From positions 1,743 through 55,592 of the forward strand of contig CBFHRY010000003.1 in the NCBI GenBank assembly GCA_965658385.1: a stretch of DNA of 53,850 bases, given 5' to 3'. Of this stretch, positions 1-14,251 are shown in pieces; within the stretch, counting starts at the first letter, position 1, and every line of letters begins with the position of its first letter. This DNA comes from Gammaproteobacteria bacterium (GTDB taxonomy: Bacteria; Pseudomonadota; Gammaproteobacteria; Magnimaribacterales; D2472). The notes beneath the pieces are model-generated. The model worked only from the letters and a program-made list of their open reading frames with translations. It made no database searches and was not told where the DNA came from. The position numbers were made by a program, and so were the translations under genes.

Positions 1-75
1 GCATTACAAGCATTTATTTTTATGGCGTTAACCATTGCTTATTTGGCAATGGCGCATGAAACCGAGGAACATTAG
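1..75 (+). CDS. atpB: F0F1 ATP synthase subunit a, C-terminal fragment (5' end lies outside the window)
   Basis: Frame 1 reads ALQAFIFMALTIAYLAMAHETEEH-stop. This is a hydrophobic C-terminus directly upstream of atpE in canonical operon order. Confidence 0.8.
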   Translation, partial: ALQAFIFMALTIAYLAMAHETEEH

Positions 76-89
76 TCCTCAAAATATAG

Positions 90-320
<231 letters not shown>

Positions 321-338
321 GAGAGTAGAAATTAGAAG

Positions 339-809
339 ATGAACATTAACGCAACCTTACTTGCACAAGCAGTAGTTTTTGTAATTTTTGTGGTTATATG
401 CATGAAATATGTCTATCCACAAATACTGGCTGTTATGCAAGAAAGAGAAAAGAGAATATCAGACGGTTTAGAGGCAGCCAAAAAAGCAGACGACTCACTT
501 GAAGAGGCTAAACTAGCCTCAGATAAAGAGTTAAACAAAGCCAAAGAAGAGGCGGCTGATATATTAAAGAAAGCAAATGCTCGAGCTTCTCAAATTGTTG
601 CCGATGCATCTAACAAAGCAGAGGCGGAAGCAGAAAAAATCATGACAGCAGCATCTGCAAGTGTTGAAAACGAAACCAACAGAGCTAAAGAAGAGTTAAG
701 ACAACAAATGTCAGACATTATTATTGATACTACAGAAAAAATTCTCGGGGATGAGATTTCATCTGAAAAACACAATGACATTCTGAAAAAGGCTGCACAG
801 GAGCTTTAA
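339..809 (+). CDS. atpF: F0F1 ATP synthase subunit b
   Basis: 156 aa with an N-terminal TM helix and a long charged coiled coil. Operon position fits. Confidence 0.9.
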   Translation: MNINATLLAQAVVFVIFVVICMKYVYPQILAVMQEREKRISDGLEAAKKADDSLEEAKLASDKELNKAKEEAADILKKANARASQIVADASNKAEAEAEKIMTAASASVENETNRAKEELRQQMSDIIIDTTEKILGDEISSEKHNDILKKAAQEL

Positions 810-1345
810 TGATTGAATTAACACCCTTAGCAAGACCATACGCAAAAGCAATATTTGCTGCTGCTTTGGATGACAACAGCCTGGAAGAAACATCTAATGA
901 ACTTCACACAATTACACTAGCAACCAGTTCTCCTGAGGTAACTAGTGCAATTGAAGACCCTAAAATGTCCAGAAAACAAGTTGTCGATTTGCTAATGGAG
1001 CTCTTCAGTAAAGAGGTATCTCAAAAATCTGAAAGGCTATTATTAATTCTTGCAGAGAACAAAAGATTAAATCTTCTTGAGACAATCCATCAACTATACG
1101 TTGAACTGGTGCAGGACCACAAAAGTCAAAAATCAATAGAGGTTTTTGTGGCCTCTGACCCAAGCGAAGACGCCAAAGAAAAAATAGAAACCAAGCTTTA
1201 TGCTTCTTATGGTGATGACGCTAAAATAACTTTTTTAAAAGACCCAAAAATGATGGGCGGCCTAACTATTAAGGTGGGCGACGAAACACTAGACCTTTCC
1301 ATAAAAGGAAAAGTCAACAAACTTGTAAACCAATTAAATTTTTAA
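809..1345 (+). CDS. atpH: F0F1 ATP synthase subunit delta
   Basis: 178 aa. ATGA start/stop overlap with atpF. OSCP/delta-like ARPYAKAIF N-terminus. Confidence 0.9.
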   Translation: MIELTPLARPYAKAIFAAALDDNSLEETSNELHTITLATSSPEVTSAIEDPKMSRKQVVDLLMELFSKEVSQKSERLLLILAENKRLNLLETIHQLYVELVQDHKSQKSIEVFVASDPSEDAKEKIETKLYASYGDDAKITFLKDPKMMGGLTIKVGDETLDLSIKGKVNKLVNQLNF

Positions 1346-1354
1346 GGTGAAAAT

Positions 1355-2899
1355 ATGAGTCAACTAAATCCATCAGAAATATCCAGCGTTTTAAAAGAAA
1401 AAATAGCTGGCTTGGATCTTTCAGCTGAAAGAAAAAACGAGGGCATTATTGTCAGCGTTTCAGACGGTATCGTAAGAATACATGGCATGGGCGATGTTAT
1501 GTATGGTGAGGTTATTGAATTTGAAAATGGCACAAAAGGCATGGCGTTAAACCTAGAACAAGATTCGGTTGGTGCTGTTGTGCTGGGTGATTACCTTGGT
1601 TTGGTTGAGGGACAGAAAGCCGTTTGTACAGGTAAGGTTTTAGAGGTTCCTGTTGGAGAGGGTCTATTAGGAAGGGTGGTAAATACACTTGGAACACCTA
1701 TTGATGGTAAGGGAGAAATTAAAGCACAAGGCACATCTCCTGTAGAAGTGGTTGCCCCTGGTGTTATCGCCAGACAGTCTGTTGATCAACCGGTTCAAAT
1801 TGGACTAAAAGCTGTTGATGCAATGGTGCCTATTGGTAGAGGCCAAAGGGAGTTAATCATCGGCGACAGACAAACAGGTAAAACAGCTGTTGCTATCGAC
1901 GCTATTATTAACCAAAAAGGAACAGGTATTAAATGTATCTATGTTGCTATTGGCCAAAAACAATCAACAGTTGCTAACGTTGTCAGGAAGCTTGAAGAGC
2001 ATGGAGCTATGGAGCACACAATTGTTGTTTCTGCTACTGCAGCCGATCCTGCGCCAATGCAATATTTGTCTGCTTATTCTGGTTGCGCAATGGGAGAATA
2101 TTTTAGAGACAGGGGAGAAGATGCTCTTATTGTTTACGATGATCTTTCAAAACAGGCTGTTGCATACAGACAGGTATCTTTACTATTAAAAAGGCCCCCT
2201 GGAAGGGAAGCATATCCTGGTGATGTGTTTTATCTACACTCAAGATTATTAGAGAGAGCTGCGCGGGTAAACGCAGAATATGTTGAACAAGTAACAGGTG
2301 GAGAGGTTAAAGGCAAAACAGGCTCCTTAACAGCACTGCCAATAATTGAAACCCTTGCCGGCGACGTTTCTGCTTTTGTTCCAACAAACGTAATTTCTAT
2401 TACTGACGGACAGATTTATTTAGAAACAGAGCTATTTAACTCAGGTGTTAGACCTGCGATTAACCCAGGCTTATCAGTATCAAGGGTTGGCGGATCTGCG
2501 CAAACAAAAATAATGAAAAAACTAGCTGGTGGCGTTAGAACAGCCTTAGCTCAATATAGAGAGTTAGCAGCATTCTCACAGTTTGCGTCTGATTTAGATG
2601 ACGCAACCAAACAGCAACTTGCAAACGGTAAGGCGTTTACAGAACTACTCAAACAAAAACAATATGCTCCAATGAGCGTTGCTCAACAAGCACTAAGTCT
2701 TTATGCAGCTGACAGAGGCTACATGGCAGATGTTGATGTTGAAAAAATATTAGATTTTGAGACAGCATTGCACGGATATTTAACCTCTGAGAAGGGTGAG
2801 CTTGAAGAGCAAATCAATACAACAGGTGATTGGAATGATGATATTGAGAATCAGTTTAAAGAACTTGTTGAAGACTTCAAAAAGACACAAACTTTTTAA
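1355..2899 (+). CDS. atpA: F0F1 ATP synthase subunit alpha
   Basis: 514 aa. Walker A GDRQTGKT and highly conserved alpha-subunit sequence throughout. Confidence 0.98.
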
Positions 2900-2906
2900 T
2901 TAGAAA

Positions 2907-3767
2907 ATGGCCAATACAAAAGAAGTAAGAAAACAGATTGCGAGTATAAAAAGCACGCAAAAAATCACTTCAGCTATGGAGATGGTTGCTGCTTCTAAAA
3001 TGAAAAAAACCCAGGACAGTATGTTCGAGGGAAGGCCGTACTCACAAAAAATAAAAGAAGTTATTTCACATATTGCTATGGCTAGCTCTGAATATAATCA
3101 TCCTTTTTATGAAGAGAGAAAGCCCAAGAAAGCTTGTTTTATAGTTATCTCATCAGACAAAGGTTTGTGCGGAGGCTTAAACATAAACCTATTCAAACAG
3201 GTTATTGCTAAATCTGCAGAATTGGATGCCCAAGGCATAGAATCTTGTTTTGCGCTTGTCGGCACAAAAGCATCTGGGTTCTTTAAGTCAGTTGGCGGCC
3301 AGGTTGTTGCTGTAACAGAAAAGCTTGGCGACAAACCAAACCCCGATGATCTGATTGGCTTCACAAAGGTTGTTTTAGATATGCATAAAAATGGAGACAT
3401 TGATGAGGCATACCTGTGCTCAAATAGTTTTGTAAACACAATGACACAACAACCAAAAGTAGAGCAATTAATTCCACTTTCACCAGAAGAAATAGATGGA
3501 CCAAAAACACACTGGGATTACATTTACGAACCTGAAGCAAAGGTTTTGTTAGATGGCTTACTAACAAGATACATAGAATCACTTGTCTATCAGGCTGTGG
3601 TTGAAAATAACGCATGCGAACAAGCGGCCAAAATGATTGCAATGAAAAATGCAACCGATAACGCGGGTGACTTAATCAAAGAATTAGAACTTTTATACAA
3701 CAACGTAAGACAAGCGGCTATCACTCAAGAGCTCTCAGAGATAGTCGGCGGCGCAGCTGCAGTTTAA
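2907..3767 (+). CDS. atpG: F0F1 ATP synthase subunit gamma
   Basis: 286 aa. [15 protein letters not shown]-terminus and [18 protein letters not shown]-terminus are typical of gamma. Confidence 0.97.
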
Positions 3768-5177
<1,410 letters not shown>

Positions 5178-5179
5178 AT

Positions 5180-5593
5180 ATGAGCACCATTAAGATCAAC
5201 ATAGTTTCTTCAAGTGAAGAGATTTATTCCGGAGAAGGAACTATGGTTTATGCCACTGGCTCACTTGGTGAGATTGGTATAGCTCCTGGTCATACGCCTC
5301 TACTAACAGGCCTAGCAGCAGGTCCGGTAAGGGTTGTTAATGGTGAAAAAGAAGAAGCATTTTTTTGCTCAGGAGGCTTCTTAGAAGTTCAACCAGATCT
5401 AGTAACTGTTTTATCAGACACAGCTGAGCGAGCTGAAAACTTAGATGAGGCAGAGGCAATTAAAGCAAAAGAGGCCGCTGAGAAAGATCTAGCAAATCAA
5501 GATGCCTCTTTAGACTACGCTAAAGCGTCTGCGCAGCTAGCCGAAGCAGTAGCAAGACTCAAAACAATTCAAAAACTTCGTAAAAAGCAGTAA
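5180..5593 (+). CDS. atpC: F0F1 ATP synthase subunit epsilon
   Basis: 137 aa. Operon position and a beta-sandwich plus helical hairpin pattern. Confidence 0.93.
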   Translation: MSTIKINIVSSSEEIYSGEGTMVYATGSLGEIGIAPGHTPLLTGLAAGPVRVVNGEKEEAFFCSGGFLEVQPDLVTVLSDTAERAENLDEAEAIKAKEAAEKDLANQDASLDYAKASAQLAEAVARLKTIQKLRKKQ

Positions 5594-5624
5594 TATAAGT
5601 ATTAATTTTAAACATTAAATTAAT

Positions 5625-6983
5625 GTGAATATACATACTATTATTCTTGCTGCTGGCGAAGGCACAAGAATGAACTCTAATCGTGCCAAGTCTCTACAAA
5701 CAGTAGGCGGCACTTCTATGTTAGAGAAAATATGCAGAACAGCAGGAAAAATTAGCAAAGACATAACCTTAATTGTTGGTTTTGACAAAGAATCAATTAT
5801 TAATGAGGCTAATACTTTTGCTGAATTAAATATCACAACCAGCCTTCAGCCCAAGCCAATAGGCACTGGCGATGCTGTAAAGTGTGGGTTGGACAAAGTC
5901 AACTCAGGCTCAAAAGTTTTGGTTCTATATGGCGACGTTCCATTAATCAAAAAAGCAACCCTAGACAATCTTATCGCAGAATCAAGCGAGGGCGCATCAA
6001 TCTTGACTACCACCCTAGAGGATCCTTTTGGCTATGGCAGAGTTAAAAAAACAGAGAACGGTTTTGCAACTGCTGTAATAGAAGAGAAAGATGCGGATAG
6101 CGATGAAAAGAAGATCAAAGAAGTATTTACCGGCGTTTTATGTGCTGAGAAAGAGCTCTTAGAAACAAGCCTTCAAGAAGTTACAAACAATAACGCAGCA
6201 AATGAATTTTACTTAACCGACATAGTTTCTATAATGAGTTCTAAGGGGGTAAATATTAATACCTACATTTCTTCAAATGAGGAAGTTCAAGGCGCTAATA
6301 ACAAAAAAGAGTTAGAAAAACTTGAGAGCATATATAGATCAATGAAAACAGAGGAATTATTTAACCAAGGCATAACTATTGTAGATGCCAAAAGACTTGA
6401 TGTTCGGGGCGAGGTTAAGGCTGGCAAAGACTGCTTGATAGATGTAAATGTAATTTTAGAGGGAGATATCACGCTTGGAAACAATGTGTCTATAGGCCCA
6501 AATACAATTTTGAAGGATGTAGAGGTTGGTGATGGCACCAAAATAGAAGCTTTCTCTCACATAGTAAATGCAAAAATTGGTGACAACTGCTCAATAGGAC
6601 CATATGCAAGACTAAGAGAGGGCAGCAGAATAGAAGATTCTGGAAAAGTAGGCAATTTTGTAGAAACAAAAAATAGCACACTTGGTAGTGGCTCAAAAGC
6701 TAACCATTTTACCTATTTAGGTGATACAACAGTTGGTACTAAAACAAATATTGGGGCCGGCACAATAACTTGCAACTATGACGGCAAAAACAAACATAAG
6801 ACCATAGTTGGTGATAATAGCTTCATAGGCAGCAACTCTTCTTTGGTGGCACCGGTGAAAATAGGAAATAACACCACCATTGCAGCCGGATCAACAATAA
6901 CCAAAGATGTTCCAAGCGATGCCCTTGGTGTTGGCAGGTCAAAACAAACAAATAAAGACAATTGGTCTAAGAAAAAAGGATAA
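5625..6983 (+). CDS. glmU: bifunctional UDP-N-acetylglucosamine pyrophosphorylase / glucosamine-1-phosphate N-acetyltransferase
   Basis: GTG start. ILAAGEGTRM nucleotidyltransferase motif and C-terminal left-handed beta-helix hexapeptide repeats. Sits upstream of glmS. Confidence 0.95.
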   Translation: MNIHTIILAAGEGTRMNSNRAKSLQTVGGTSMLEKICRTAGKISKDITLIVGFDKESIINEANTFAELNITTSLQPKPIGTGDAVKCGLDKVNSGSKVLVLYGDVPLIKKATLDNLIAESSEGASILTTTLEDPFGYGRVKKTENGFATAVIEEKDADSDEKKIKEVFTGVLCAEKELLETSLQEVTNNNAANEFYLTDIVSIMSSKGVNINTYISSNEEVQGANNKKELEKLESIYRSMKTEELFNQGITIVDAKRLDVRGEVKAGKDCLIDVNVILEGDITLGNNVSIGPNTILKDVEVGDGTKIEAFSHIVNAKIGDNCSIGPYARLREGSRIEDSGKVGNFVETKNSTLGSGSKANHFTYLGDTTVGTKTNIGAGTITCNYDGKNKHKTIVGDNSFIGSNSSLVAPVKIGNNTTIAAGSTITKDVPSDALGVGRSKQTNKDNWSKKKG

Positions 6984-6986
6984 AAA

Positions 6987-8813
6987 ATGTGCGGCATTAT
7001 TGCAGCTGCCTCTAACAGGCATGTAGGAAAATTATTAGTCCAAGGACTTCATAAAATGGAGTATCGAGGATATGACTCAGCAGGCATCGCTCTTCATCAA
7101 AATGAGAGCATAGCCCACCTTAGAGCCCTTGGAAAAGTTCAGCTTCTAGAAGAAAAAATGATTGCTGAAAAACCAAAAAGCAAATTAGGTATTGCTCATA
7201 CAAGATGGGCAACTCATGGGGAGCCATCAGAGACTAATGCTCATCCCCACAAATCTCAAGATTCTGTTTATATTGTTCATAACGGCATTATTGAAAATTA
7301 TGTTGAGCTTAAAGAAGACCTTAAGAAAGATGGCTATGAATTTATATCTCAAACAGATTCAGAGCTAATCGCCCATTTGCTTGATTTATATATTAACCAA
7401 GGCCAGTCAATGATAGACGCAATGTATTCAGCAAAAGAAAAACTCGAGGGCGCATATGCGATAGCAGCTATTGATATAAAAGATAGCACTAATTTGGTTA
7501 TAGCAAGAAACAAATCACCTCTATTAATAGGAGTTGGAACCGATGAAATGTTTGCAGCCTCAGATCCTCTTGCTATAGCACAACAAACCAATGATTTTAT
7601 TTTTTTAGAAGATGGTGATGTAGCAGAGATTTCTGCCAATAGTTACAAAATATTTGATGATTCTAAAAACGAAGCCAAAAGAGAAATCACACATATAGAT
7701 ATTTCAGCTCAAGCAACCTCAAAGGGTGATTACAGGCACTATATGGAAAAAGAAATATACGAACAACCTGAGGCTGTTTCAAAAACAATAGACGGAAGAA
7801 TAGGCGGCGAGGACGTTCTAGATAATATTTTTGGCTTGGGTTCTACCGAACTATTCTCAAAAGTAAAACGCATTCAAATGGTTGCTTGCGGAACAAGTCT
7901 TCATGCAGGAAGAGTTGCTGCAAATTGGTTTTCATCAATAGCCGATCTTCCATGCCAAGTTGATTATGCAAGTGAGTATAGATATAGAAATCCCCATGTA
8001 GATAAAAACTCATTATTAATTACCATTTCTCAATCAGGCGAAACAGCTGATACTTTGGCTGCCTTAAACTACGCAAAAGAAAAAGACTATCTTTCTACTC
8101 TTGCTATCTGCAATGTTCCCACGAGCTCTTTAGCTAGAGAGTCAGACTTTTCACTGTTTACCAACGCAGGCCCGGAAATAGGCGTTGCTTCAACCAAAGC
8201 TTTTACAACCCAGCTTGCAGGATTAATGTTGCTTGCATTATCACTGGCAAAAAGCAGAGGGCTAAACCCAAAACTCAGGGGAAGAATAGTCCAGGCGTTA
8301 AGATCGCTCCCAGTGACTATCGAAGAAGCCCTTAACCTAAAAGAACAAATGGTTGAAATAGCACCAAATATTGCTAACAAAGATAATGCTTTATTTTTAG
8401 GTAGAGGTATTTTTTATCCTATCGCCAAAGAAGGAGCATTAAAGCTTAAAGAGATTTCTTACATCCATGCAGAAGCTTACCCTGCTGGCGAGCTAAAACA
8501 TGGCCCACTTGCATTAATAGATGAAAATATGCCGGTTATAGCATTAGCGCCTGAAAGCGAAATTGCAGAAAAACTAATTTCTAATTTAGAAGAAGTGAAG
8601 GCAAGAGGTGGAACCCTTTATGTCTGCGCCGATCCTTCGGTAAACATGGATGTTAAGTCTGGCAAATTAGTTCACATGCCTGATTGTGATTTCTTTATGA
8701 CACCAATTGTTTATAACATTCCATTGCAAATTCTTTCATACGAAGTTGCACTTCTAAGAGGAACAGACATTGATCAGCCAAGGAACTTAGCCAAGTCAGT
8801 GACGGTGGAATAG
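6987..8813 (+). CDS. glmS: glutamine--fructose-6-phosphate aminotransferase (isomerizing)
   Basis: MCGI N-terminal nucleophile Cys, two SIS domains, and the canonical C-terminus LAKSVTVE-stop. Confidence 0.98.
   Translation: MCGIIAAASNRHVGKLLVQGLHKMEYRGYDSAGIALHQNESIAHLRALGKVQLLEEKMIAEKPKSKLGIAHTRWATHGEPSETNAHPHKSQDSVYIVHNGIIENYVELKEDLKKDGYEFISQTDSELIAHLLDLYINQGQSMIDAMYSAKEKLEGAYAIAAIDIKDSTNLVIARNKSPLLIGVGTDEMFAASDPLAIAQQTNDFIFLEDGDVAEISANSYKIFDDSKNEAKREITHIDISAQATSKGDYRHYMEKEIYEQPEAVSKTIDGRIGGEDVLDNIFGLGSTELFSKVKRIQMVACGTSLHAGRVAANWFSSIADLPCQVDYASEYRYRNPHVDKNSLLITISQSGETADTLAALNYAKEKDYLSTLAICNVPTSSLARESDFSLFTNAGPEIGVASTKAFTTQLAGLMLLALSLAKSRGLNPKLRGRIVQALRSLPVTIEEALNLKEQMVEIAPNIANKDNALFLGRGIFYPIAKEGALKLKEISYIHAEAYPAGELKHGPLALIDENMPVIALAPESEIAEKLISNLEEVKARGGTLYVCADPSVNMDVKSGKLVHMPDCDFFMTPIVYNIPLQILSYEVALLRGTDIDQPRNLAKSVTVE
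8795..8813 (+). repeat. core repeat R0 (gtcagtgacggtggaatag), the authentic glmS 3' end
   Basis: First of four direct copies of a 19-nt core. The others are at 9617, 10411 and 10675. Encodes S-V-T-V-E-stop. Confidence 0.9.
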
Positions 8814-8827
8814 TTTCGTTTGCAGAA

Positions 8828-9046
8828 TTAAGTCTTAGGCAGTTTAAATAAATCTTCAACTTTACAATTAAAAATCTTTGATATTTTTAATGCTAGAACG
8901 GTTGAGGGTACATAAATCCCATTTTCAATAGCATTGATACTTTTTCTTGAAACATCTGTTTTATTTGAAAGTTCTTGTTGAGTTAGACCTGCATTTTTTC
9001 TGTATTGCTCAAGATTGTTTAGGAGTTTGTGATGATTTTTACCCAT
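8828..9046 (-). CDS. small XRE-family helix-turn-helix transcriptional regulator (copy A)
   Basis: 72 aa from the ATG at 9046 (the ORF track extends to 9067). HTH_3-like LTQQELSNKTDVSRKSINAIENG. 59/72 residues identical to copy B by hand alignment. Overlaps the upstream gene by 8 nt (ATGGGTAA). Confidence 0.85.
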   Translation of the reverse strand: MGKNHHKLLNNLEQYRKNAGLTQQELSNKTDVSRKSINAIENGIYVPSTVLALKISKIFNCKVEDLFKLPKT

Positions 9047-9464
9047 GTTGGGATTCTCGATAATCACCTATTGCAAACCATATTAAAAGCACTCCAAAAA
9101 TTAACCAAGCATAAGCAGCAATTTGTAAAATCATATTTGATGCGATTTGGATATCCCAGTTTTGGTAATCTTGAATGCTAAATATTATAAATAAACCTAT
9201 GCCGTTAAGTGCGTACCCTAAATTGCCTAATCTATAAAATCTATCTGCTGCATATTCGTCATAAAGTTTATTATTTATTCCTTCTTTACCATAGTAATAA
9301 GATATTACTAAAACAATAGACGTTAAAATTATAAGTATTCCAGGTATGAACATTAGATTAGATGGAAGTTGTAATATACCTAAATCAAATAAAAGATGAA
9401 TTGCAAAAAAGACTTGTACGACTCCACATAAAAATAACATTAAAAAACGTGTATAAAAATTCAT
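9039..9464 (-). CDS. multi-pass membrane protein of unknown function, partner of the HTH regulator
   Basis: 141 aa with about 4 predicted TM helices and a charged central loop (LYDEYAADRFYR). Translationally coupled to the HTH gene. Confidence 0.7.
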   Translation of the reverse strand: MNFYTRFLMLFLCGVVQVFFAIHLLFDLGILQLPSNLMFIPGILIILTSIVLVISYYYGKEGINNKLYDEYAADRFYRLGNLGYALNGIGLFIIFSIQDYQNWDIQIASNMILQIAAYAWLIFGVLLIWFAIGDYRESQHG

Positions 9465-9492
9465 GGTTAGTTTATTTCCTTAATTAATTAAA

Positions 9493-9537
9493 TGTAACGT
9501 AAACTTATCACTATCTTAATGAGAAGTAAAGGTTACA
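9493..9537. promoter_or_regulatory. 45-nt imperfect palindrome (tgtaacgtaaactt N17 aagtaaaggttaca), candidate operator of the cassette A HTH regulator
   Basis: 14-nt arms matching 11/14, located 29-73 nt upstream of the membrane-gene start codon. Conserved with identical spacing in cassette B. Confidence 0.5.
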
Positions 9538-9616
9538 AGATAAATTATTGTATAATTCTTACGTGGACAAAAAATACATAAATTTCTACAAGAAATTTAT
9601 TCTGCAAACGAAAACA

Positions 9617-9635
9617 GTCAGTAACGGTGGAGTAG
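9617..9635 (+). repeat. core repeat R1 (gtcagtaacggtggagtag)
   Basis: 17/19 identical to R0. Both differences are third-codon-position changes in the frame S-V-T-V-E-stop. Sits in the loop of the 9597-9652 inverted repeat. Confidence 0.85.
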
Positions 9636-9649
9636 TTTCGTTTGCAGAA

Positions 9650-9868
9650 TTAATTATTTGGCAATCTAAATAAATCCTCTACCTTACATCCAAGAGTTTT
9701 AGAAATTTTTAAAGCAAGAACAGTAGAAGGGACATATATTCCGTTCTCAATTGCATTAATGCTTTTTCTAGAAACATCAGCACTCTCAGATAATTCCTGT
9801 TGAGTTAACCCTGCATTCTTACGAAGTTCCTCAAGATTGTTTAGAAGTTTTTTATGATCTTTGCCCAA
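9650..9868 (-). CDS. small XRE-family helix-turn-helix transcriptional regulator (copy B)
   Basis: 72 aa. Paralog of copy A (59/72 identical). Confidence 0.85.
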   Translation of the reverse strand: MGKDHKKLLNNLEELRKNAGLTQQELSESADVSRKSINAIENGIYVPSTVLALKISKTLGCKVEDLFRLPNN

Positions 9869-9870
9869 AA

Positions 9871-10266
9871 TTATTTCTTTTCGAAGTCTTCAACTGCATT
9901 TGTTAATTCTTCACTTGTGTTTGGGTAAAGATAACCAGCAATTATTTGTCCTAAACCAATAGCAGCAACTAATGCTCCAACACCTTTAAGCACTGAACCT
10001 AGAAAAAATACACCAAACAGAAAAAGACCCACACCAGTAAATAATGTAACAACCCCAGTTCTTCTATAATCAATTGGTTCTTTTTTTCTTTCATCAAGCA
10101 TGCCTATTAAGTCTTCGACTTTTGAAGGATCATCAATGTTTTTCGATATCTCCAATATTGTTCTATTCTTATCCTTGCTTTCAAAATATAACCAAACAAA
10201 GACAGATACAGGCACTATTATTCCTGTCATTATTCCTAATACCGGTATTAATATTTCAAGACCCAT
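9871..10266 (-). CDS. membrane protein of unknown function (3 predicted TM helices), partner of HTH copy B
   Basis: I place the start at the ATG at 10266 (MGLEILIPVLG...), which is preceded by GAGGAGAGGAAA. The ORF-track extension to 10401 would run through the conserved operator region. Confidence 0.7.
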   Translation of the reverse strand: MGLEILIPVLGIMTGIIVPVSVFVWLYFESKDKNRTILEISKNIDDPSKVEDLIGMLDERKKEPIDYRRTGVVTLFTGVGLFLFGVFFLGSVLKGVGALVAAIGLGQIIAGYLYPNTSEELTNAVEDFEKK

Positions 10267-10285
10267 TTTCCTCTCCTCACTAAAA

Positions 10286-10330
10286 TGTAACGCAAACTTA
10301 TCATTAATTATATGAGAAGTAAAGGTTACA
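10286..10330. promoter_or_regulatory. 45-nt imperfect palindrome (tgtaacgcaaactt N17 aagtaaaggttaca), candidate operator in cassette B
   Basis: Same arms and same 17-nt spacer length as the cassette A palindrome. Confidence 0.5.
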
Positions 10331-10410
10331 ATTAAAATCATTGTATAATTTTTTATATGGATAAAAAATATATAAATTTCTACAACAAATTTATTCTGCA
10401 AACGAAAACA

Positions 10411-10429
10411 CTCAATGACGGTGGAGTAG
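10411..10429 (+). repeat. core repeat R2 (ctcaatgacggtggagtag)
   Basis: In frame it reads S-M-T-V-E-stop. Immediately follows the right TIR of cassette B. Confidence 0.8.
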
Positions 10430-10674
10430 ATAAAGGTGTCTACATAATATGAGTAAAAAATTTAAAAATTCTGATAATGGCGGTAACTGGATTGGTGTTG
10501 GTACTGCGATAGGCGTAGCAGTTTTTGCCGCAACCAATGAACCAGTGTGGATAGCTGTAGGTGTTGCAATTGGAGCAGCGCTGGGTTGGCGAAAACCAAA
10601 AAATAAAGATGAAAAAGAAGCATCTTGATTTCTTGATTAAATTTTATAATCTAAAAAGTAGACAGTTAAATCTA
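10427..10674 (+). mobile_element. mini-cassette C: segment of about 245 bp with its own 17-nt imperfect TIRs and one 59-aa ORF
   Basis: tagataaaggtgtctac (10427-10443) versus gtagacagttaaatcta (10658-10674), 13/17 complementary including a perfect 7-mer tgtctac/gtagaca. Flanked by cores R2 and R3. Confidence 0.4.
10449..10628 (+). CDS. small glycine/alanine-rich membrane protein (59 aa), not in the supplied ORF track
   Basis: Hand translation: MSKKFKNSDNGGNWIGVGTAIGVAVFAATNEPVWIAVGVAIGAALGWRKPKNKDEKEAS-stop. Two short hydrophobic G/A-zipper segments and an AAAGG about 11 nt upstream of the ATG. Confidence 0.5.
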   Translation: MSKKFKNSDNGGNWIGVGTAIGVAVFAATNEPVWIAVGVAIGAALGWRKPKNKDEKEAS

Positions 10675-10693
10675 CTCAATGACAGTGGAATAA
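10675..10693 (+). repeat. core repeat R3 (ctcaatgacagtggaataa)
   Basis: In frame it reads S-M-T-V-E-stop (TAA). This is the most distal copy. Confidence 0.75.
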
Positions 10694-10717
10694 TTACGAT
10701 TAATGATATAGAAACGA

Positions 10718-11110
10718 ATGAATGAACTAAATAAACAAAACAAGATAATTACTTATATTTTTGAATTGGGACTCATTAAAAGCGTAAATGAGACTAGATG
10801 GTTTATGAGGGAAAATTCTTCTCCCTATGTTTTTAATTGCTCAGAACCCAAAACCATAAGATTTGAATGGTTTCTATCCGAAGATGAGAAGTCAGCAACA
10901 TTAATAGAAATGTTTGAAGATAGCGATGCTGCCAAACTAAGATTAGAAAATCACTCTGAAAGCCATCTTGTTAAAGAGTTTCCAGAATATTTTGAAATTA
11001 AGAACTTTATTGTTTTGGGCGATATTAAACCTGATATGAAGGATAAGTTAGCGGATTGGAATGCAGACTTAAGAGGAAATGTGGGTGGTTTTTTTAAAGG
11101 GCTAGATTAG
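10718..11110 (+). CDS. hypothetical protein, possibly ABM/Dabb-like ferredoxin fold
   Basis: 130-aa ORF. Only a weak resemblance to ABM-domain proteins (FEWFLSEDEKSATLIEMFEDSDAAKLRLENH), so the function is not supported beyond that. Confidence 0.55.
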   Translation: MNELNKQNKIITYIFELGLIKSVNETRWFMRENSSPYVFNCSEPKTIRFEWFLSEDEKSATLIEMFEDSDAAKLRLENHSESHLVKEFPEYFEIKNFIVLGDIKPDMKDKLADWNADLRGNVGGFFKGLD

Positions 11111-11184
11111 TAAAGGTTACACCAAATTTTTTTGCATACTCTGCAAAGTGAATTATGATATAGCCATATCAACTACATAAATCA

Positions 11185-12972
11185 ATGAACCGATTATTAT
11201 CTAGTTTTGTTCTGTTTATTCTTATTACAGCCTGCGGGGGTGGCTCAGGCTCGTCTTCAGAGCCAGCCCCAGTTCAGCCGCCAACCAACCCTTCAATACC
11301 CACTTTTAATTCATCGTCAAACTCTATATTTACAAATGAATCTATTGCAATAACTTGGAGTAGCAATAATGCAAGCACATGTATGGCTAGTGGCGACTGG
11401 GATGGCCAAAAAGCTTCTACTGGTAGTGAAAGCTTGCAGTTACAAGAAGCAAAAACTTATACATTTATACTAACCTGCTCTGGTGAAGTGGGCACACAAC
11501 CTGCCACAGCAAGCCTTGATGTTATTGTTATGGAGCCACCAGCACCAGCCCCAAAACTATCAAGTGTTTCATTTCTGTTAGAAGATAATAATCAGTTAGA
11601 AAATGATATTGCTCTTGAAGAACAGTCTGAGAGCGCTTTTTTTGGCAGAGTTCCTTTCAACATATCGCTAGATGGGCTTGCAGCAACCTATGAATTTATA
11701 GGCAGCAGCATTCAGATTAACGATGTTGAGCAAGAAAGTGGAATAACCAGAAACAATTTTACAGATATAGTAAATGTAAAAGTTTTGAACAAAGATGGCG
11801 ATAGCGAGACTTATCAAATTAACTTAACCAAATTTACCGGCTTGCCTATTGTGTACATAGAAACAGATGGATCAATGCAAATAGATTCAAAAGATGATTA
11901 TGTGCTTGGGGATACTAATATAGATGGCGGCAGGAATTATGAAAATTTTCCAAGCGCTTCCATGAAGATTAGAGGCAGGGGTAATTCCACTTGGGAGTTT
12001 CCGAAAAAACCCTTCCAAATGAAGCTGGACGATAAAGCAGAGTTTCTAGGAATGCCAAATGATAAGAAATGGCTCTTTCTAGCAGAATATACCGATAAAA
12101 CAATGCTTAGAAATACAATTGCTTTTGAGATGGGCTACATAAGCCATTTGGATTGGACTCCTGAGGCAGAATTTGCAGAGGTTTATATCAACGGTGATTA
12201 CAATGGTACTTACAACATAACTCAAAAAGTTGAAGAAGGTGATAACAGAGTTGCCATTGGTGACACCGGATATTTACTTGAGCTCGACCAATTAGAGAAT
12301 CTTGATTCAGACGATGTGTATTTTGAAAGCGCTGTAACAGAAAGGTTTATTATCAATATTAAAGAACCAAACCTAGATGCTGGATCAGATGAATTTGTAT
12401 ACATAGAAAATCTTATTACTAATTTTGAAAATAACTTGTTTAGCCAAAATTTTGCAGATGAGGCAACGGGATATAGGCAATATATAGATATGGAAAGTTT
12501 CATTGATTGGTTTTTGATTAGTGAGATAACAAAAAATGTTGATTCAATGTTTTTCTCAAGTATTTTTCTAAACGTTATGCCTGGAGAGAAAATAAAAATG
12601 GGGCCTTTATGGGATTTTGATTTATCTTTTGGCAATGTTGATTATGCAGATAGTCGATATCCTGAGGGATGGTGGGTTAAATACAACCCTTGGTACGAGC
12701 GCTTATTTGAAGACCCTGCGTTCGTTGAAGCAGTAAGAAATAGATTTGAATATTTTAATAACAACAGGGACTATATTCTAAATAAAATTGATACATATGC
12801 AGAAAAATTAAAATGGGCACAGGAAGAAAATGATGACAAATGGCAAACCATTGGTGTTTATGTTTGGCCTAACCCAGTTATATTTGATACTTATCAAGAA
12901 GAGGTTGATCATATGAAGGCATGGTATGAGACTAGGATGGATTGGCTAGAATCAGCTCTCGGTGATTTATAA
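11185..12972 (+). CDS. CotH kinase-family lipoprotein with an N-terminal Ig-like domain
   Basis: Lipobox LITAC followed by a G/S linker. Ig-like ITWSSNNASTCMASGDWDG motif. CotH-type motifs RGRGNSTWEFPKKPFQMKLD and PLWDFDLSFGN. Confidence 0.8.
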   Translation: MNRLLSSFVLFILITACGGGSGSSSEPAPVQPPTNPSIPTFNSSSNSIFTNESIAITWSSNNASTCMASGDWDGQKASTGSESLQLQEAKTYTFILTCSGEVGTQPATASLDVIVMEPPAPAPKLSSVSFLLEDNNQLENDIALEEQSESAFFGRVPFNISLDGLAATYEFIGSSIQINDVEQESGITRNNFTDIVNVKVLNKDGDSETYQINLTKFTGLPIVYIETDGSMQIDSKDDYVLGDTNIDGGRNYENFPSASMKIRGRGNSTWEFPKKPFQMKLDDKAEFLGMPNDKKWLFLAEYTDKTMLRNTIAFEMGYISHLDWTPEAEFAEVYINGDYNGTYNITQKVEEGDNRVAIGDTGYLLELDQLENLDSDDVYFESAVTERFIINIKEPNLDAGSDEFVYIENLITNFENNLFSQNFADEATGYRQYIDMESFIDWFLISEITKNVDSMFFSSIFLNVMPGEKIKMGPLWDFDLSFGNVDYADSRYPEGWWVKYNPWYERLFEDPAFVEAVRNRFEYFNNNRDYILNKIDTYAEKLKWAQEENDDKWQTIGVYVWPNPVIFDTYQEEVDHMKAWYETRMDWLESALGDL

Positions 12973-13012
12973 TTTAGAATCAATTTAAGCATAACAATTT
13001 GAGGTTATATAC

Positions 13013-13375
13013 ATGGTTACATTTATTTCATTAGCATTACTTTTATATCTTATTCAACTAATTTTGCCGAATGCATTAAAGGCTGGAACGGGTTATGCAA
13101 AAAGGGCGGGTAAAGCGCTTAAAAATTTAAGCGAATCTTTGCCTGTTTATCTGACTTTAGCAATCCTATCAATTGTTTTAAGTGTTGATGAAAATACAAT
13201 GCTTGCCCTTTACTGGTTAATAGCCAGATTAATATTTGCAGTTATATACGTCTTAGGGCTTGGTCTTGATAATAAGTCTAAAGAGTCACAGGGCCCTGAC
13301 AGACAACCACTCCGATCTTTTGTCTGGGCTGGATCAATAGTTATATTGATTGCAATGACCTCAAATCTATTTTAG
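13013..13375 (+). CDS. MAPEG-family-like small membrane protein
   Basis: 120 aa with 3-4 TM helices. Size and layout resemble MAPEG; the assignment is tentative. Confidence 0.55.
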   Translation: MVTFISLALLLYLIQLILPNALKAGTGYAKRAGKALKNLSESLPVYLTLAILSIVLSVDENTMLALYWLIARLIFAVIYVLGLGLDNKSKESQGPDRQPLRSFVWAGSIVILIAMTSNLF

Positions 13376-13408
13376 GTAGAAAAACATAAAAAACCACAGG
13401 CTTATATT

Positions 13409-14251
13409 ATGATAAAAACTTTAGATCATTTAATAATCGCCGTAGAGGATCTAGATAAAGCCGAAACTGATTATGCAAAAGTTTTTGGAGTCGATCCCGT
13501 TTGGAGAGGGGAGCATAAAGAACTCGGAACCACCAACTCTTTATTTAATTTCAACAACACTTATTTTGAACTACTTTCAGCAAGCGGAGATGGTCTCGGA
13601 GCTATGCTGGTTAACCATGCTTTAGAAGAAAATGGAGAAGGATTAATTGGAATGGTTCTTGGCACAGACGATATATCAAAGACTGCAAATGATCTCAAAA
13701 ATAAGTCATTTTTAATTAATGAGCCTTCCGAGGGTGTTGGCACAAACTTTAATAGCGACCAAGTTAGAAAATGGAAAAACCTTTTTTTACCACCCGATTT
13801 AACAAGAGGTATATTTTCTTTCATCATAGAGCATATACATGGAGAATTGCCTAAACCAGATCTCTCTAATTCGTCTGTGGTATCAAAATTAGATCATCTG
13901 GTTATTAACACAAACGATGCAGATGGCTTTATAAAAATTTACAAAGATGTTTTTAATATCAAACTTGCGCTAGATAAGCACATAGATCATTGGGACAAAA
14001 GAATGCTTTTCTTTAGATTAAACAAAACAACCATTGAGGTTGTTGAATCAAAAGATGATAAAGAGCCAAACGATTCATTGTGGGGTCTTGCTTGGGAGGT
14101 TGATGATATAGATGAGGCCCACAAAAGACTTTTTGCCGACGGCATTGAAGCAACATCGGTTAAAAAAGGAGTAAAGGAAAACTCGAAGGTCATTACAGTT
14201 AAATCACATTGCCATGGAGTGCCAACACTACTTATTGAGCATTTGAACTAA
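13409..14251 (+). CDS. two-domain VOC (glyoxalase/bleomycin-resistance/dioxygenase) family protein
   Basis: Duplicated LDHLxIxV/N modules (TLDHLIIAVEDLDKA and KLDHLVINTNDADG). Confidence 0.75.
   Translation: MIKTLDHLIIAVEDLDKAETDYAKVFGVDPVWRGEHKELGTTNSLFNFNNTYFELLSASGDGLGAMLVNHALEENGEGLIGMVLGTDDISKTANDLKNKSFLINEPSEGVGTNFNSDQVRKWKNLFLPPDLTRGIFSFIIEHIHGELPKPDLSNSSVVSKLDHLVINTNDADGFIKIYKDVFNIKLALDKHIDHWDKRMLFFRLNKTTIEVVESKDDKEPNDSLWGLAWEVDDIDEAHKRLFADGIEATSVKKGVKENSKVITVKSHCHGVPTLLIEHLN

Follow-up and report, generated by a model that had tools for sequence, protein, structure and literature searches.

This study concerns a 53,850-nt stretch of the genome of a SAR86 gammaproteobacterium (contig CBFHRY010000003.1; hereafter the window), in which two cassettes, A and B, lie directly 3' of glmS. 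They are probably independently acquired small integrative elements that encode no recombinase, dock at the 3' end of glmS, and are likely to be moved by a large serine recombinase (LSR). Under the proposed mechanism, each element would carry a dyad site of about 54 bp across its circle junction, running from the right arm through 4 nt and an 18-nt sequence that mimics the glmS end to the left arm, the 17-nt inverted repeats of A and B being the two half-site arms. The circle would recombine with the glmS end, or with an existing array junction, by exchange at a central, non-palindromic AC; the incoming cassette would give glmS a new ...VE-stop end, units would be bounded by core copies, and arrays would grow in one orientation. 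The enzyme would most likely be an LSR acting in trans, supplied by autonomous circles of 6.7–10 kb that have a like site at the 3' end of the recombinase gene.

Genomes with a glmS only 68–87% identical to that of the window carry cassette A at 99.8–100% identity over about 803 nt, and cassette B is 98–99% identical where glmS is 75% identical. Cassette A stands directly after glmS in the window and in two other loci (L225, L226), and elsewhere is the second to fifth unit, with seven different left neighbours and several right neighbours. An identical copy of its membrane protein is indexed in 288 blocks of a public collection, and an identical copy of the cassette B helix-turn-helix (HTH) protein in 434 blocks; in marine metagenomes and single-cell genomes, contigs of sufficient length place both of them downstream of glmS. 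Since A was found without B, and B without A, in other genomes, the two represent independent acquisitions and not a local duplication. The latter scenario, tandem duplication of a 0.8-kb unit followed by replacement of the membrane-protein gene and with no mobility, had been raised in a first-pass annotation of the window as the competing history, and would account for A and B being adjacent and having both flanks in common. It is refuted by the lone copies, which occur at other array positions with 98–100% identity, and by the varied neighbours of cassette A; with the shared parts of A and B being only about 78% identical as well, its probability is negligible.

Loci of SAR86 were gathered by scanning species-representative genomes with the GlmS protein, those with at least 1.5 kb downstream being counted; the same scan identified the organism of the window as SAR86. 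Of 34 SAR86 species loci, 31 have one to eight further core copies behind the glmS stop on the same strand, with none on the opposite strand; about 40 glmS loci from outside SAR86 show the glmS end only, except for L060 (an array) and L087 (one extra copy). The two cassettes recognised in the first-pass annotation are real units, but their repeats represent just one of dozens of co-varying arm families in a glmS array that extends across SAR86. Among 96 core-delimited units, 42 have arms matching at 13 or more of 17 positions at a fixed offset, the left arm starting directly after the core and the right arm ending 4 nt before the next core. Arms differ between cassette families and co-vary within a cassette (mean match 11.9, against 9.2 for mismatched starts and ends), and both direct repeats of the glmS end at the two borders and terminal inverted repeats are present. 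The repeat-bounded units range from 168 to 2042 bp (median 521 bp) and are about 70% coding; most hold a single gene, and the longest open reading frame (ORF) is co-oriented with glmS in 31 of 38. Core copies mostly encode SVTVE and a stop codon, some being substituted within the first three codons, and the 3' half of the core, once joined to glmS, keeps VE-stop with TAA, TAG or TGA, so that the reading frame of the target is preserved.

Cassette ends, core and crossover point

The array of the window begins at the end of glmS, upstream of which lie the atp operon and glmU. The features that make up the recombination sites are as follows.

6987..8813, + strand: glmS, anchor gene of the array (ORF of 608 aa; GATase and SIS Pfam families on equal-length homologues)
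8796..8813, + strand: core copy 0, TCAGTGACGGTGGAATAG, the true glmS end and equivalent of attL (probable crossover AC at 8802-8803)
8814..8830, + strand: left arm of cassette A, terminal inverted repeat (probable P' half-site)
9597..9613, + strand: right arm of cassette A (probable P half-site)
9614..9635, + strand: 4-nt spacer and core copy 1, TCAGTAACGGTGGAGTAG (core 9618-9635; AC at 9624-9625)
9636..9652, + strand: left arm of cassette B (match to the 17-mer)
10391..10407, + strand: right arm of cassette B (match to the complement of the 17-mer)
10408..10429, + strand: 4-nt spacer and core copy 2, TCAATGACGGTGGAGTAG (core 10412-10429; AC at 10418-10419)
10676..10693, + strand: core copy 3, TCAATGACAGTGGAATAA, the last recognisable core (AC at 10682-10683)

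An 18-nt copy of the glmS 3' end (SVTVE and stop codon) follows each of A, B and a third cassette, and all core copies in the window encode S-V/M-T-V-E-stop, with much of the variation at third-codon positions. The 17-mer TTTCGTTTGCAGAATTA occurs at 8814-8830 and 9636-9652, and its 16/17 complement at 9597-9613 and 10391-10407, so that the inverted repeats claimed earlier were recovered at all four positions; there is a weak fifth match elsewhere, and five matches were reached in none of 100 shuffles. Pairwise alignment agreed with the description of conserved flanks around a non-matching middle, A and B being 78% identical across a 252-nt left part that takes in core, inverted repeat and HTH gene, and 85–89% across about 145 nt on the right, with no alignment between. 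It was also correct that the HTH genes are homologous (59 of 70 residues identical, 84%) and the membrane proteins unrelated (pairwise E = 0.31). To call the latter an exchangeable payload probably went too far: what is seen is an evolutionary difference between two related cassettes. The expectation that the 17-nt ends would be found elsewhere held at many loci, and they bound another payload in a 468-nt unit of L009 that contains a 130-aa gene and no HTH gene.

The crossover point was mapped from the linkage of variable core positions to the left or the right cassette across 185 distinct junctions, all 185 of which share one orientation. Positions -4 to 6 track the left cassette (z 10–22 where the core varies) and the variable positions from 9 to 18 the right cassette (z 6–12), and the switch falls on the invariant A7-C8, between positions 6 and 9. 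Cassette A is always preceded by ...AC-GGTGGAATAG (7 contexts) and always followed by acag-TCAGTA-AC..., the complementary halves varying with the neighbour; the last ~10 nt of glmS in the window (GGTGGAATAG, including the stop codon) must therefore have come with cassette A. The dyad is centred exactly on the AC and shows symmetry at positions 6-7, 9 and 12-27 on each side, about 54 bp; 21 LSR-linked attP sites give the same dyad profile as 43 reconstructed cassette junctions. Judged from these comparisons of sequence, the crossover maps to the central AC dinucleotide. By established pattern, serine recombinases cross over within 2 bp or less at their attachment (att) sites, which are imperfect palindromes of about 50 bp around a non-palindromic central dinucleotide, and the SAR86 cassette site matches this pattern in crossover, dinucleotide and palindrome alike. 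It has what is expected of an attP-type site, namely dyad symmetry of the right kind, a central dinucleotide that sets polarity and, in autonomous elements, an LSR gene beside it. The earlier picture of mobile cassettes with 17-nt recombination ends is borne out as to mobility and ends, but the crossover lies at the AC of the core and not at the repeats. The glmS-like core, which had been placed in the loop of the junction, was under-weighted as the centre of the recombining unit and as a feature that follows every unit, and so was the third cassette.

The arms and core at the A/B junction (9597-9652) form an attP-like dyad, and the prediction that a circularised cassette would carry this structure was judged right. 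The junction is also able to fold as a hairpin, as had been proposed: single-stranded DNA (ssDNA) of 9590-9660 has a fold of -17 kcal/mol (z = -7.5). Since the architecture equals that of an LSR attP, and large serine recombinases act on duplex DNA, the hairpin or cruciform is probably incidental and the site most likely a duplex, attP-like one. An integron-like reading would instead have the junction fold as a single-stranded hairpin, like attC, for a tyrosine or other recombinase encoded elsewhere in the chromosome, LSRs merely sharing the target. It draws on the good ssDNA fold of the A/B junction, on arms that co-vary between families as though pairing matters, on arrays of small, mostly promoterless, co-oriented single-gene cassettes, and on the absence of LSRs from the SAR86 loci searched. 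This reading is unlikely, given that the crossover is at the apex or centre of the palindrome, whereas that of attC is at its base, that RYYYAAC/GTTRRRY boxes are not visible in the sequences, and that the identical dyad profile, sometimes with the same arms, stands beside LSR genes. The sharp 2-bp switch also fits the 2-nt stagger of a serine recombinase and disfavours a tyrosine recombinase, because an overlap of 6–8 bp would take in the variable positions 6 and 9. By tblastn, no XerD-like or lambda-Int-like gene was found near the arrays of 90 loci, and probes for XerD, lambda Int and gamma-delta resolvase had no match in the window or in those 90 loci, the probes being of limited sensitivity; an IntI-type gene was also absent near the anchor in the same tblastn search and among the Pfam families of called genes. 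A classical integron was rejected on crossover position, the lack of R boxes and the lack of IntI.

The region just after glmS is the classical attachment region of Tn7, and units with terminal inverted repeats could also be insertions of a Tn7-like element, or of DDE transposons or miniature inverted-repeat transposable elements, at attTn7, the core being a target-site duplication. The junction, however, lies inside the last glmS codons, and the repeat is 18–22 nt and includes the glmS stop, where Tn7 would give a 5-bp duplication some 25 bp past the gene; each half of the core moves with its cassette and is not copied from the target; arms differ between families; and no transposase Pfam family occurs among the called genes of the loci with gene tables. 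This explanation is very improbable and was rejected. Two other candidates were dropped: a Xer/dif-like site, which some arms recall by their resemblance to GGTGCATTA (the arm spacing is 22 nt, versus a central region of 6–8 nt, and arms vary freely), and HUH/rolling-circle nicking in the hairpin loop, of which the single sign was a weak REP_ORF2-G2P match in L138.

Large serine recombinase elements

A scan of viral contigs with the core pattern gave 26 matches, one of which is genuine (L121), with perfect arms at the right offsets; in the same contigs the A/B 17-mer gave chance matches only, a loose arm palindrome gave 120 chance matches without a core, and two strict attP-form patterns gave none. 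L121 is a 10,265-bp circle (123-bp terminal overlap) in which the site lies inside the gene of a 703-aa LSR, at about codon 576, and this LSR has Resolvase and Recombinase domains and the catalytic motif YYRVSTRGQ. Its homologues (n = 78) fall into two length classes, ~700 aa and ~570–590 aa. In the single-cell genome L128, the glmS end and a second core bracket a 9.6-kb LSR element whose arms match (TTCGGAAGAGTGCTCAAA / TTTGAACACTCTTCCGAA); the 580-aa LSR gene of this element ends in the second core, and a small 'tail' ORF, a homologue of the LSR C-terminus, comes directly after glmS. Beyond this element there are at least three mini-cassettes with their own arms, and a tail-only unit directly behind it. 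A second LSR was found on 6.7-kb circles, with the site just after the gene. Scanning metagenomes with an LSR alignment gave 80 contigs, about 25 of them in attP form (junction symmetry 14–17 of 17) and about 20 in attR form; whenever the match extended at least as far as about residue 683 and a core could be found, the contig had the attP form.

Several LSR elements share the same or near-identical arms with cassettes that lack a recombinase. The arms TTTGAACAGAGAATTA (L164/165/186) recur in SAR86 cassettes of L001, L009, L013, L014 and L034, the arms TTTGGAACAGTGCAT (L169/171) in those of L014 and L018, and the arms TTTACAACAGTAAAT (L167) in one of L033; the arms GTTTAAACGCAGATTT (L170) match a cassette in L060, an array outside SAR86.

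The tail-only unit of L128 and an L030 cassette that holds a C-terminal LSR 'tail' remnant could also be taken to mean that the mini-cassettes are immobile, having arisen by deletion in situ from LSR elements and having spread by homologous recombination anchored on glmS and the distal flank; the flanks are indeed conserved on both sides, as glmS and a Glyoxalase_3 gene. Recombination of that kind would move blocks and not single units, yet cassette A stands behind 7 left neighbours with the breakpoints always at the core AC, intact paired arms have been kept on 42 units, and most cassettes consist of ordinary cargo genes and not of LSR-element remnants. There is thus only a small chance that this history is the right one, and movement of the cassettes by an LSR remains the favoured explanation.

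Several points weigh against an LSR as the enzyme that moves A and B. No LSR or tail homologue was found in the 53.8-kb window, and about 40 SAR86 species loci also had none in the 10 kb that follow glmS, apart from the 'tail' remnant of L030. No LSR element was found with the A/B arms TTTCGTTTGCAGAATTA, the best having 11 of 17 positions and sharing the outer AGAATTA; taking the window, the SAR86 flanks and the LSR contigs together, there was no cognate LSR for A and B, either in the same genome or with the same arms, and autonomous relatives with the same ends exist for other arm families but not for that of A and B. The integrated LSR elements examined are in hosts (L128, L167) that cannot be shown to be SAR86, and a circular form of a cassette was not observed. 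Canonical LSRs are known to recombine attP with attB only, and are not known to act on hybrid junctions without a directionality factor. The hybrid-junction reaction, which the build-up of an array would need, is documented mainly for recombinases of the Ccr type. Because of these gaps (in the LSR, the arm match, the host and the hybrid junction), mobilisation in trans by an LSR is put forward as the best-supported inference and not as a demonstrated fact.

Other features of the LSR elements were observed. Comparison of the L121 circle with L128 (10001-11743 and 2275-2475) shows that the LSR frame carries the att site inside it or at its end: free circles encode about 700 aa, integration truncates the LSR to about 570–590 aa, and a Recombinase-domain-like 'tail' of 65–130 aa ends up at the opposite end of the element, directly behind glmS and on the same strand. 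The truncation and the 'tail' could act as a switch of integration state or as a directionality factor. The assembly of the 6.7-kb circle L129 is a tandem dimer, head-to-tail over 1-14016 with each gene present twice, which is consistent with a circular or concatemeric replicating form. A small second serine recombinase (Resolvase domain, 179–202 aa) is present in each autonomous LSR element examined, at L121 4741-5280, L128 8442-8981, L129 4117-4701, L138 2437-3036 and L347 522-1130 (HTH_7 being listed for L121, L128 and L347); multimer resolution or partnership with the LSR are possible roles. There is also a second, distant LSR subfamily (27–31% identity) that is convergent to glmS (L197, L200, L203-205, L208, L210). 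The LSR had no match among PDB chains (phmmer) or in NCBIfam; for the L121 genes PADLOC, NCBIfam and PHROGs gave no specific function, and capsid or terminase genes were not detected among them. Tracing of SAR86-type LSR elements towards a SAR86 glmS, via P0038 and P0043, led only to short contigs that end at the recombinase gene. The core, arm architecture and LSR elements also occur far outside SAR86, in marine bacteria: L128 (GC content 31%, glmS 46% identical to that of the window), L060 (glmS 51% identical), L137 (GC 44%) and L138 (GC 28%).

Cargo and the distal part of the array

In both A and B, the gene of a small membrane protein and, after it, that of a 72-aa XRE-type HTH protein form an inverted operon; nothing else is encoded, a recombinase gene being absent from both. 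The two cassettes belong to the minority of array cassettes oriented opposite to glmS. Their features, and those of the units beyond them, are as follows.

8828..9046, - strand: XRE-family HTH regulator of cassette A, 72 aa (Pfam HTH_3 at 1e-14)
9039..9464, - strand: 141-aa hydrophobic protein, payload of cassette A (without a Pfam family)
9490..9596, - strand: conserved upstream region of the cassette A operon, 85–89% identical to 10283-10390 (promoter/operator role probable)
9650..9868, - strand: XRE-family HTH regulator of cassette B, 72 aa (Pfam domain scan)
9871..10266, - strand: DUF6249 membrane protein, payload of cassette B, 131 aa (Pfam DUF6249 at 2.6e-12)
10430..10675, + strand: cassette 3, 246 bp, with its own inverted arms ATAAAGGTGTCTAC / GTAGACAGTTAAAT
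10449-10628, + strand: 59-aa glycine-rich small protein of cassette 3 (ORF)
10694..11160, + strand: distal unit with a 130-aa ORF (10718-11110), 94% identical to L011 13133-13582, where it is also the last unit

The conserved upstream region presumably gives A and B a promoter of their own. It contains a TGTAAC...GTTACA repeat, a candidate operator, and a simple consensus scan of it found no sigma-70 consensus. An extended -10-like motif, TGTATAAT, is conserved on the + strand at 9549-9556 and 10342-10349, and faces outward at the right end, towards the next cassette; it may be speculated that it restarts transcription of co-oriented cassettes downstream. For the cargo proteins nothing specific was obtained from PADLOC, NCBIfam or PHROGs, with PADLOC and NCBIfam giving generic HTH matches only. 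As a working guess, held with low confidence, the cargo of A and B may be an autoregulated membrane-protein module in which the HTH protein is the repressor.

Copies of cassette 3 with 86–88% identity are present in L040 and L220. The distal unit (10694..11160) is either the original downstream flank or a decayed cassette. Following its 130-aa ORF, at 11108-11156, there is a decayed right end of an HTH cassette (TAGTAAAGGTTACACC...TCTGCAAAGTGAA) with no recognisable core behind it, which points to the eroded border of an older cassette at the far end of the array. Past the last core, 11185-13375 holds a gene of the CotH-kinase family (595 aa) and a MAPEG gene, and then comes the conserved Glyoxalase_3 gene (13409-14251). 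This stretch is probably also part of the variable region, even with no cores remaining, because among the compared loci only L040 matches any of it, from 12877 on.

A very short cassette type, ~177 bp (units of 168–177 bp) with a peptide of ~42 aa, was seen in L001, L003, L006, L010, L018, L031 and L048, and many SAR86 genomes have it as the first unit of the array or close to that place. Other cargo of cassettes and elements comprises a NucS/MrcB-like nuclease (L002 11568-12476, L010 908-1816), a TetR and RPE65 carotenoid-oxygenase pair on the LSR contig L350 (484-2513), MORN-repeat proteins, recognised by sequence pattern, at L030 13866-14351, and, among the called genes, those of MerC, DoxX, SMR and glyoxalase type.

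Relation to known systems and meaning

The closest parallels in layout can be drawn with the staphylococcal cassette chromosome (SCC), the features of which are well established. The Ccr recombinases insert SCC into the final codons of a conserved housekeeping gene, rlmH/orfX, whose 3' end the element restores, and SCC has direct repeats that include the gene 3' end and stop, imperfect terminal inverted repeats, large serine recombinases, and tandem composite arrays that include units without a recombinase. The elements described here instead target glmS, in SAR86 and other marine hosts, and most units consist of one gene and measure 0.2–2 kb (SCC being 20–60 kb). Their arms fall into dozens of families, the att site falls within the span of the recombinase gene, and the LSRs are highly divergent. 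Because arms are shared with LSR elements, the mini-cassettes stand to those elements as pseudo-SCC to SCC, or as a cis-mobilizable element (CIME) to an integrative and conjugative element (ICE).

Like integrons, the arrays are long, one-directional series of small, mostly promoterless, co-oriented single-gene cassettes at a fixed anchor, each with an imperfect palindrome as its site, variable in sequence but constant in symmetry, and identical cassettes are common to divergent genomes. Unlike integrons, they have no IntI-type gene detected by the anchor and no R/L boxes, the crossover is at the centre of the palindrome, the conserved part mimics the end of a host gene, and the associated enzymes are serine recombinases. 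The CIMEs and ICESt1/ICESt3 at the 3' end of fda in Streptococcus thermophilus also place att-flanked units without a recombinase in tandem with autonomous elements, and in CIME accretion, as in the ssrA islands of Dehalococcoides, the gene end is repeated at each junction. The integrase of the Dehalococcoides ssrA-specific islands is reportedly a serine recombinase, and the ICESt system differs in using tyrosine integrases. Those CIMEs and islands also differ in unit size (kb to tens of kb), in having few units per array, in their targets (fda, ssrA) and in belonging to other host phyla. Among marine elements, the virion-encapsidated integrative mobile elements (VEIMEs) of module 3 and the LSR-bearing minority of tycheposons are small integrative elements (5–18 kb) with serine recombinases (PMC9618062; bioRxiv 10.1101/2020.12.28.424599), and the LSR circles of 6.7–10 kb may belong to the VEIME module 3 population. 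A search for the terms glmS and SAR86 in the main text of both papers found no mention of either, so that a glmS att site and arrays of recombinase-less mini-cassettes are apparently not described there; nor was a description of this system found in the literature searched on SAR86 gene cassettes, hypervariable regions and glmS serine recombinases. The class of mechanism is familiar, and what is new is the target, the host clade, the integron-like miniaturisation, the diversity of arm families, and a recombinase gene that spans its own att site.

A diverse family of LSRs aimed at a defined sequence that nearly all bacteria have (the SVTVE-stop end of glmS) is relevant to genome engineering, and natural minimal att-flanked cargo units, together with the unusual design in which integration truncates the recombinase gene, provide further leads. 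SAR86 is among the most abundant bacterial clades of the surface ocean, and streamlined ocean bacteria of this kind have large flexible gene pools with few recognised mechanisms of gene exchange. A glmS cassette array in nearly every SAR86 species examined, with cassettes identical across genomes that are ~15–30% divergent at glmS, offers a concrete and testable mechanism for this flexibility. It can be suggested, tentatively, that SAR86 and some other marine lineages possess a functional analogue of the integron based on a serine recombinase, a platform for gene capture at the last codons of glmS, in which hundreds of single-gene cassette types, each with a palindromic mimic of the glmS end, may be inserted, shuffled and exchanged between divergent genomes and expressed by read-through from glmS. 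Small circular elements, perhaps carried in virions, would provide the recombinase for short periods only, their own copy of its gene being split when they integrate.

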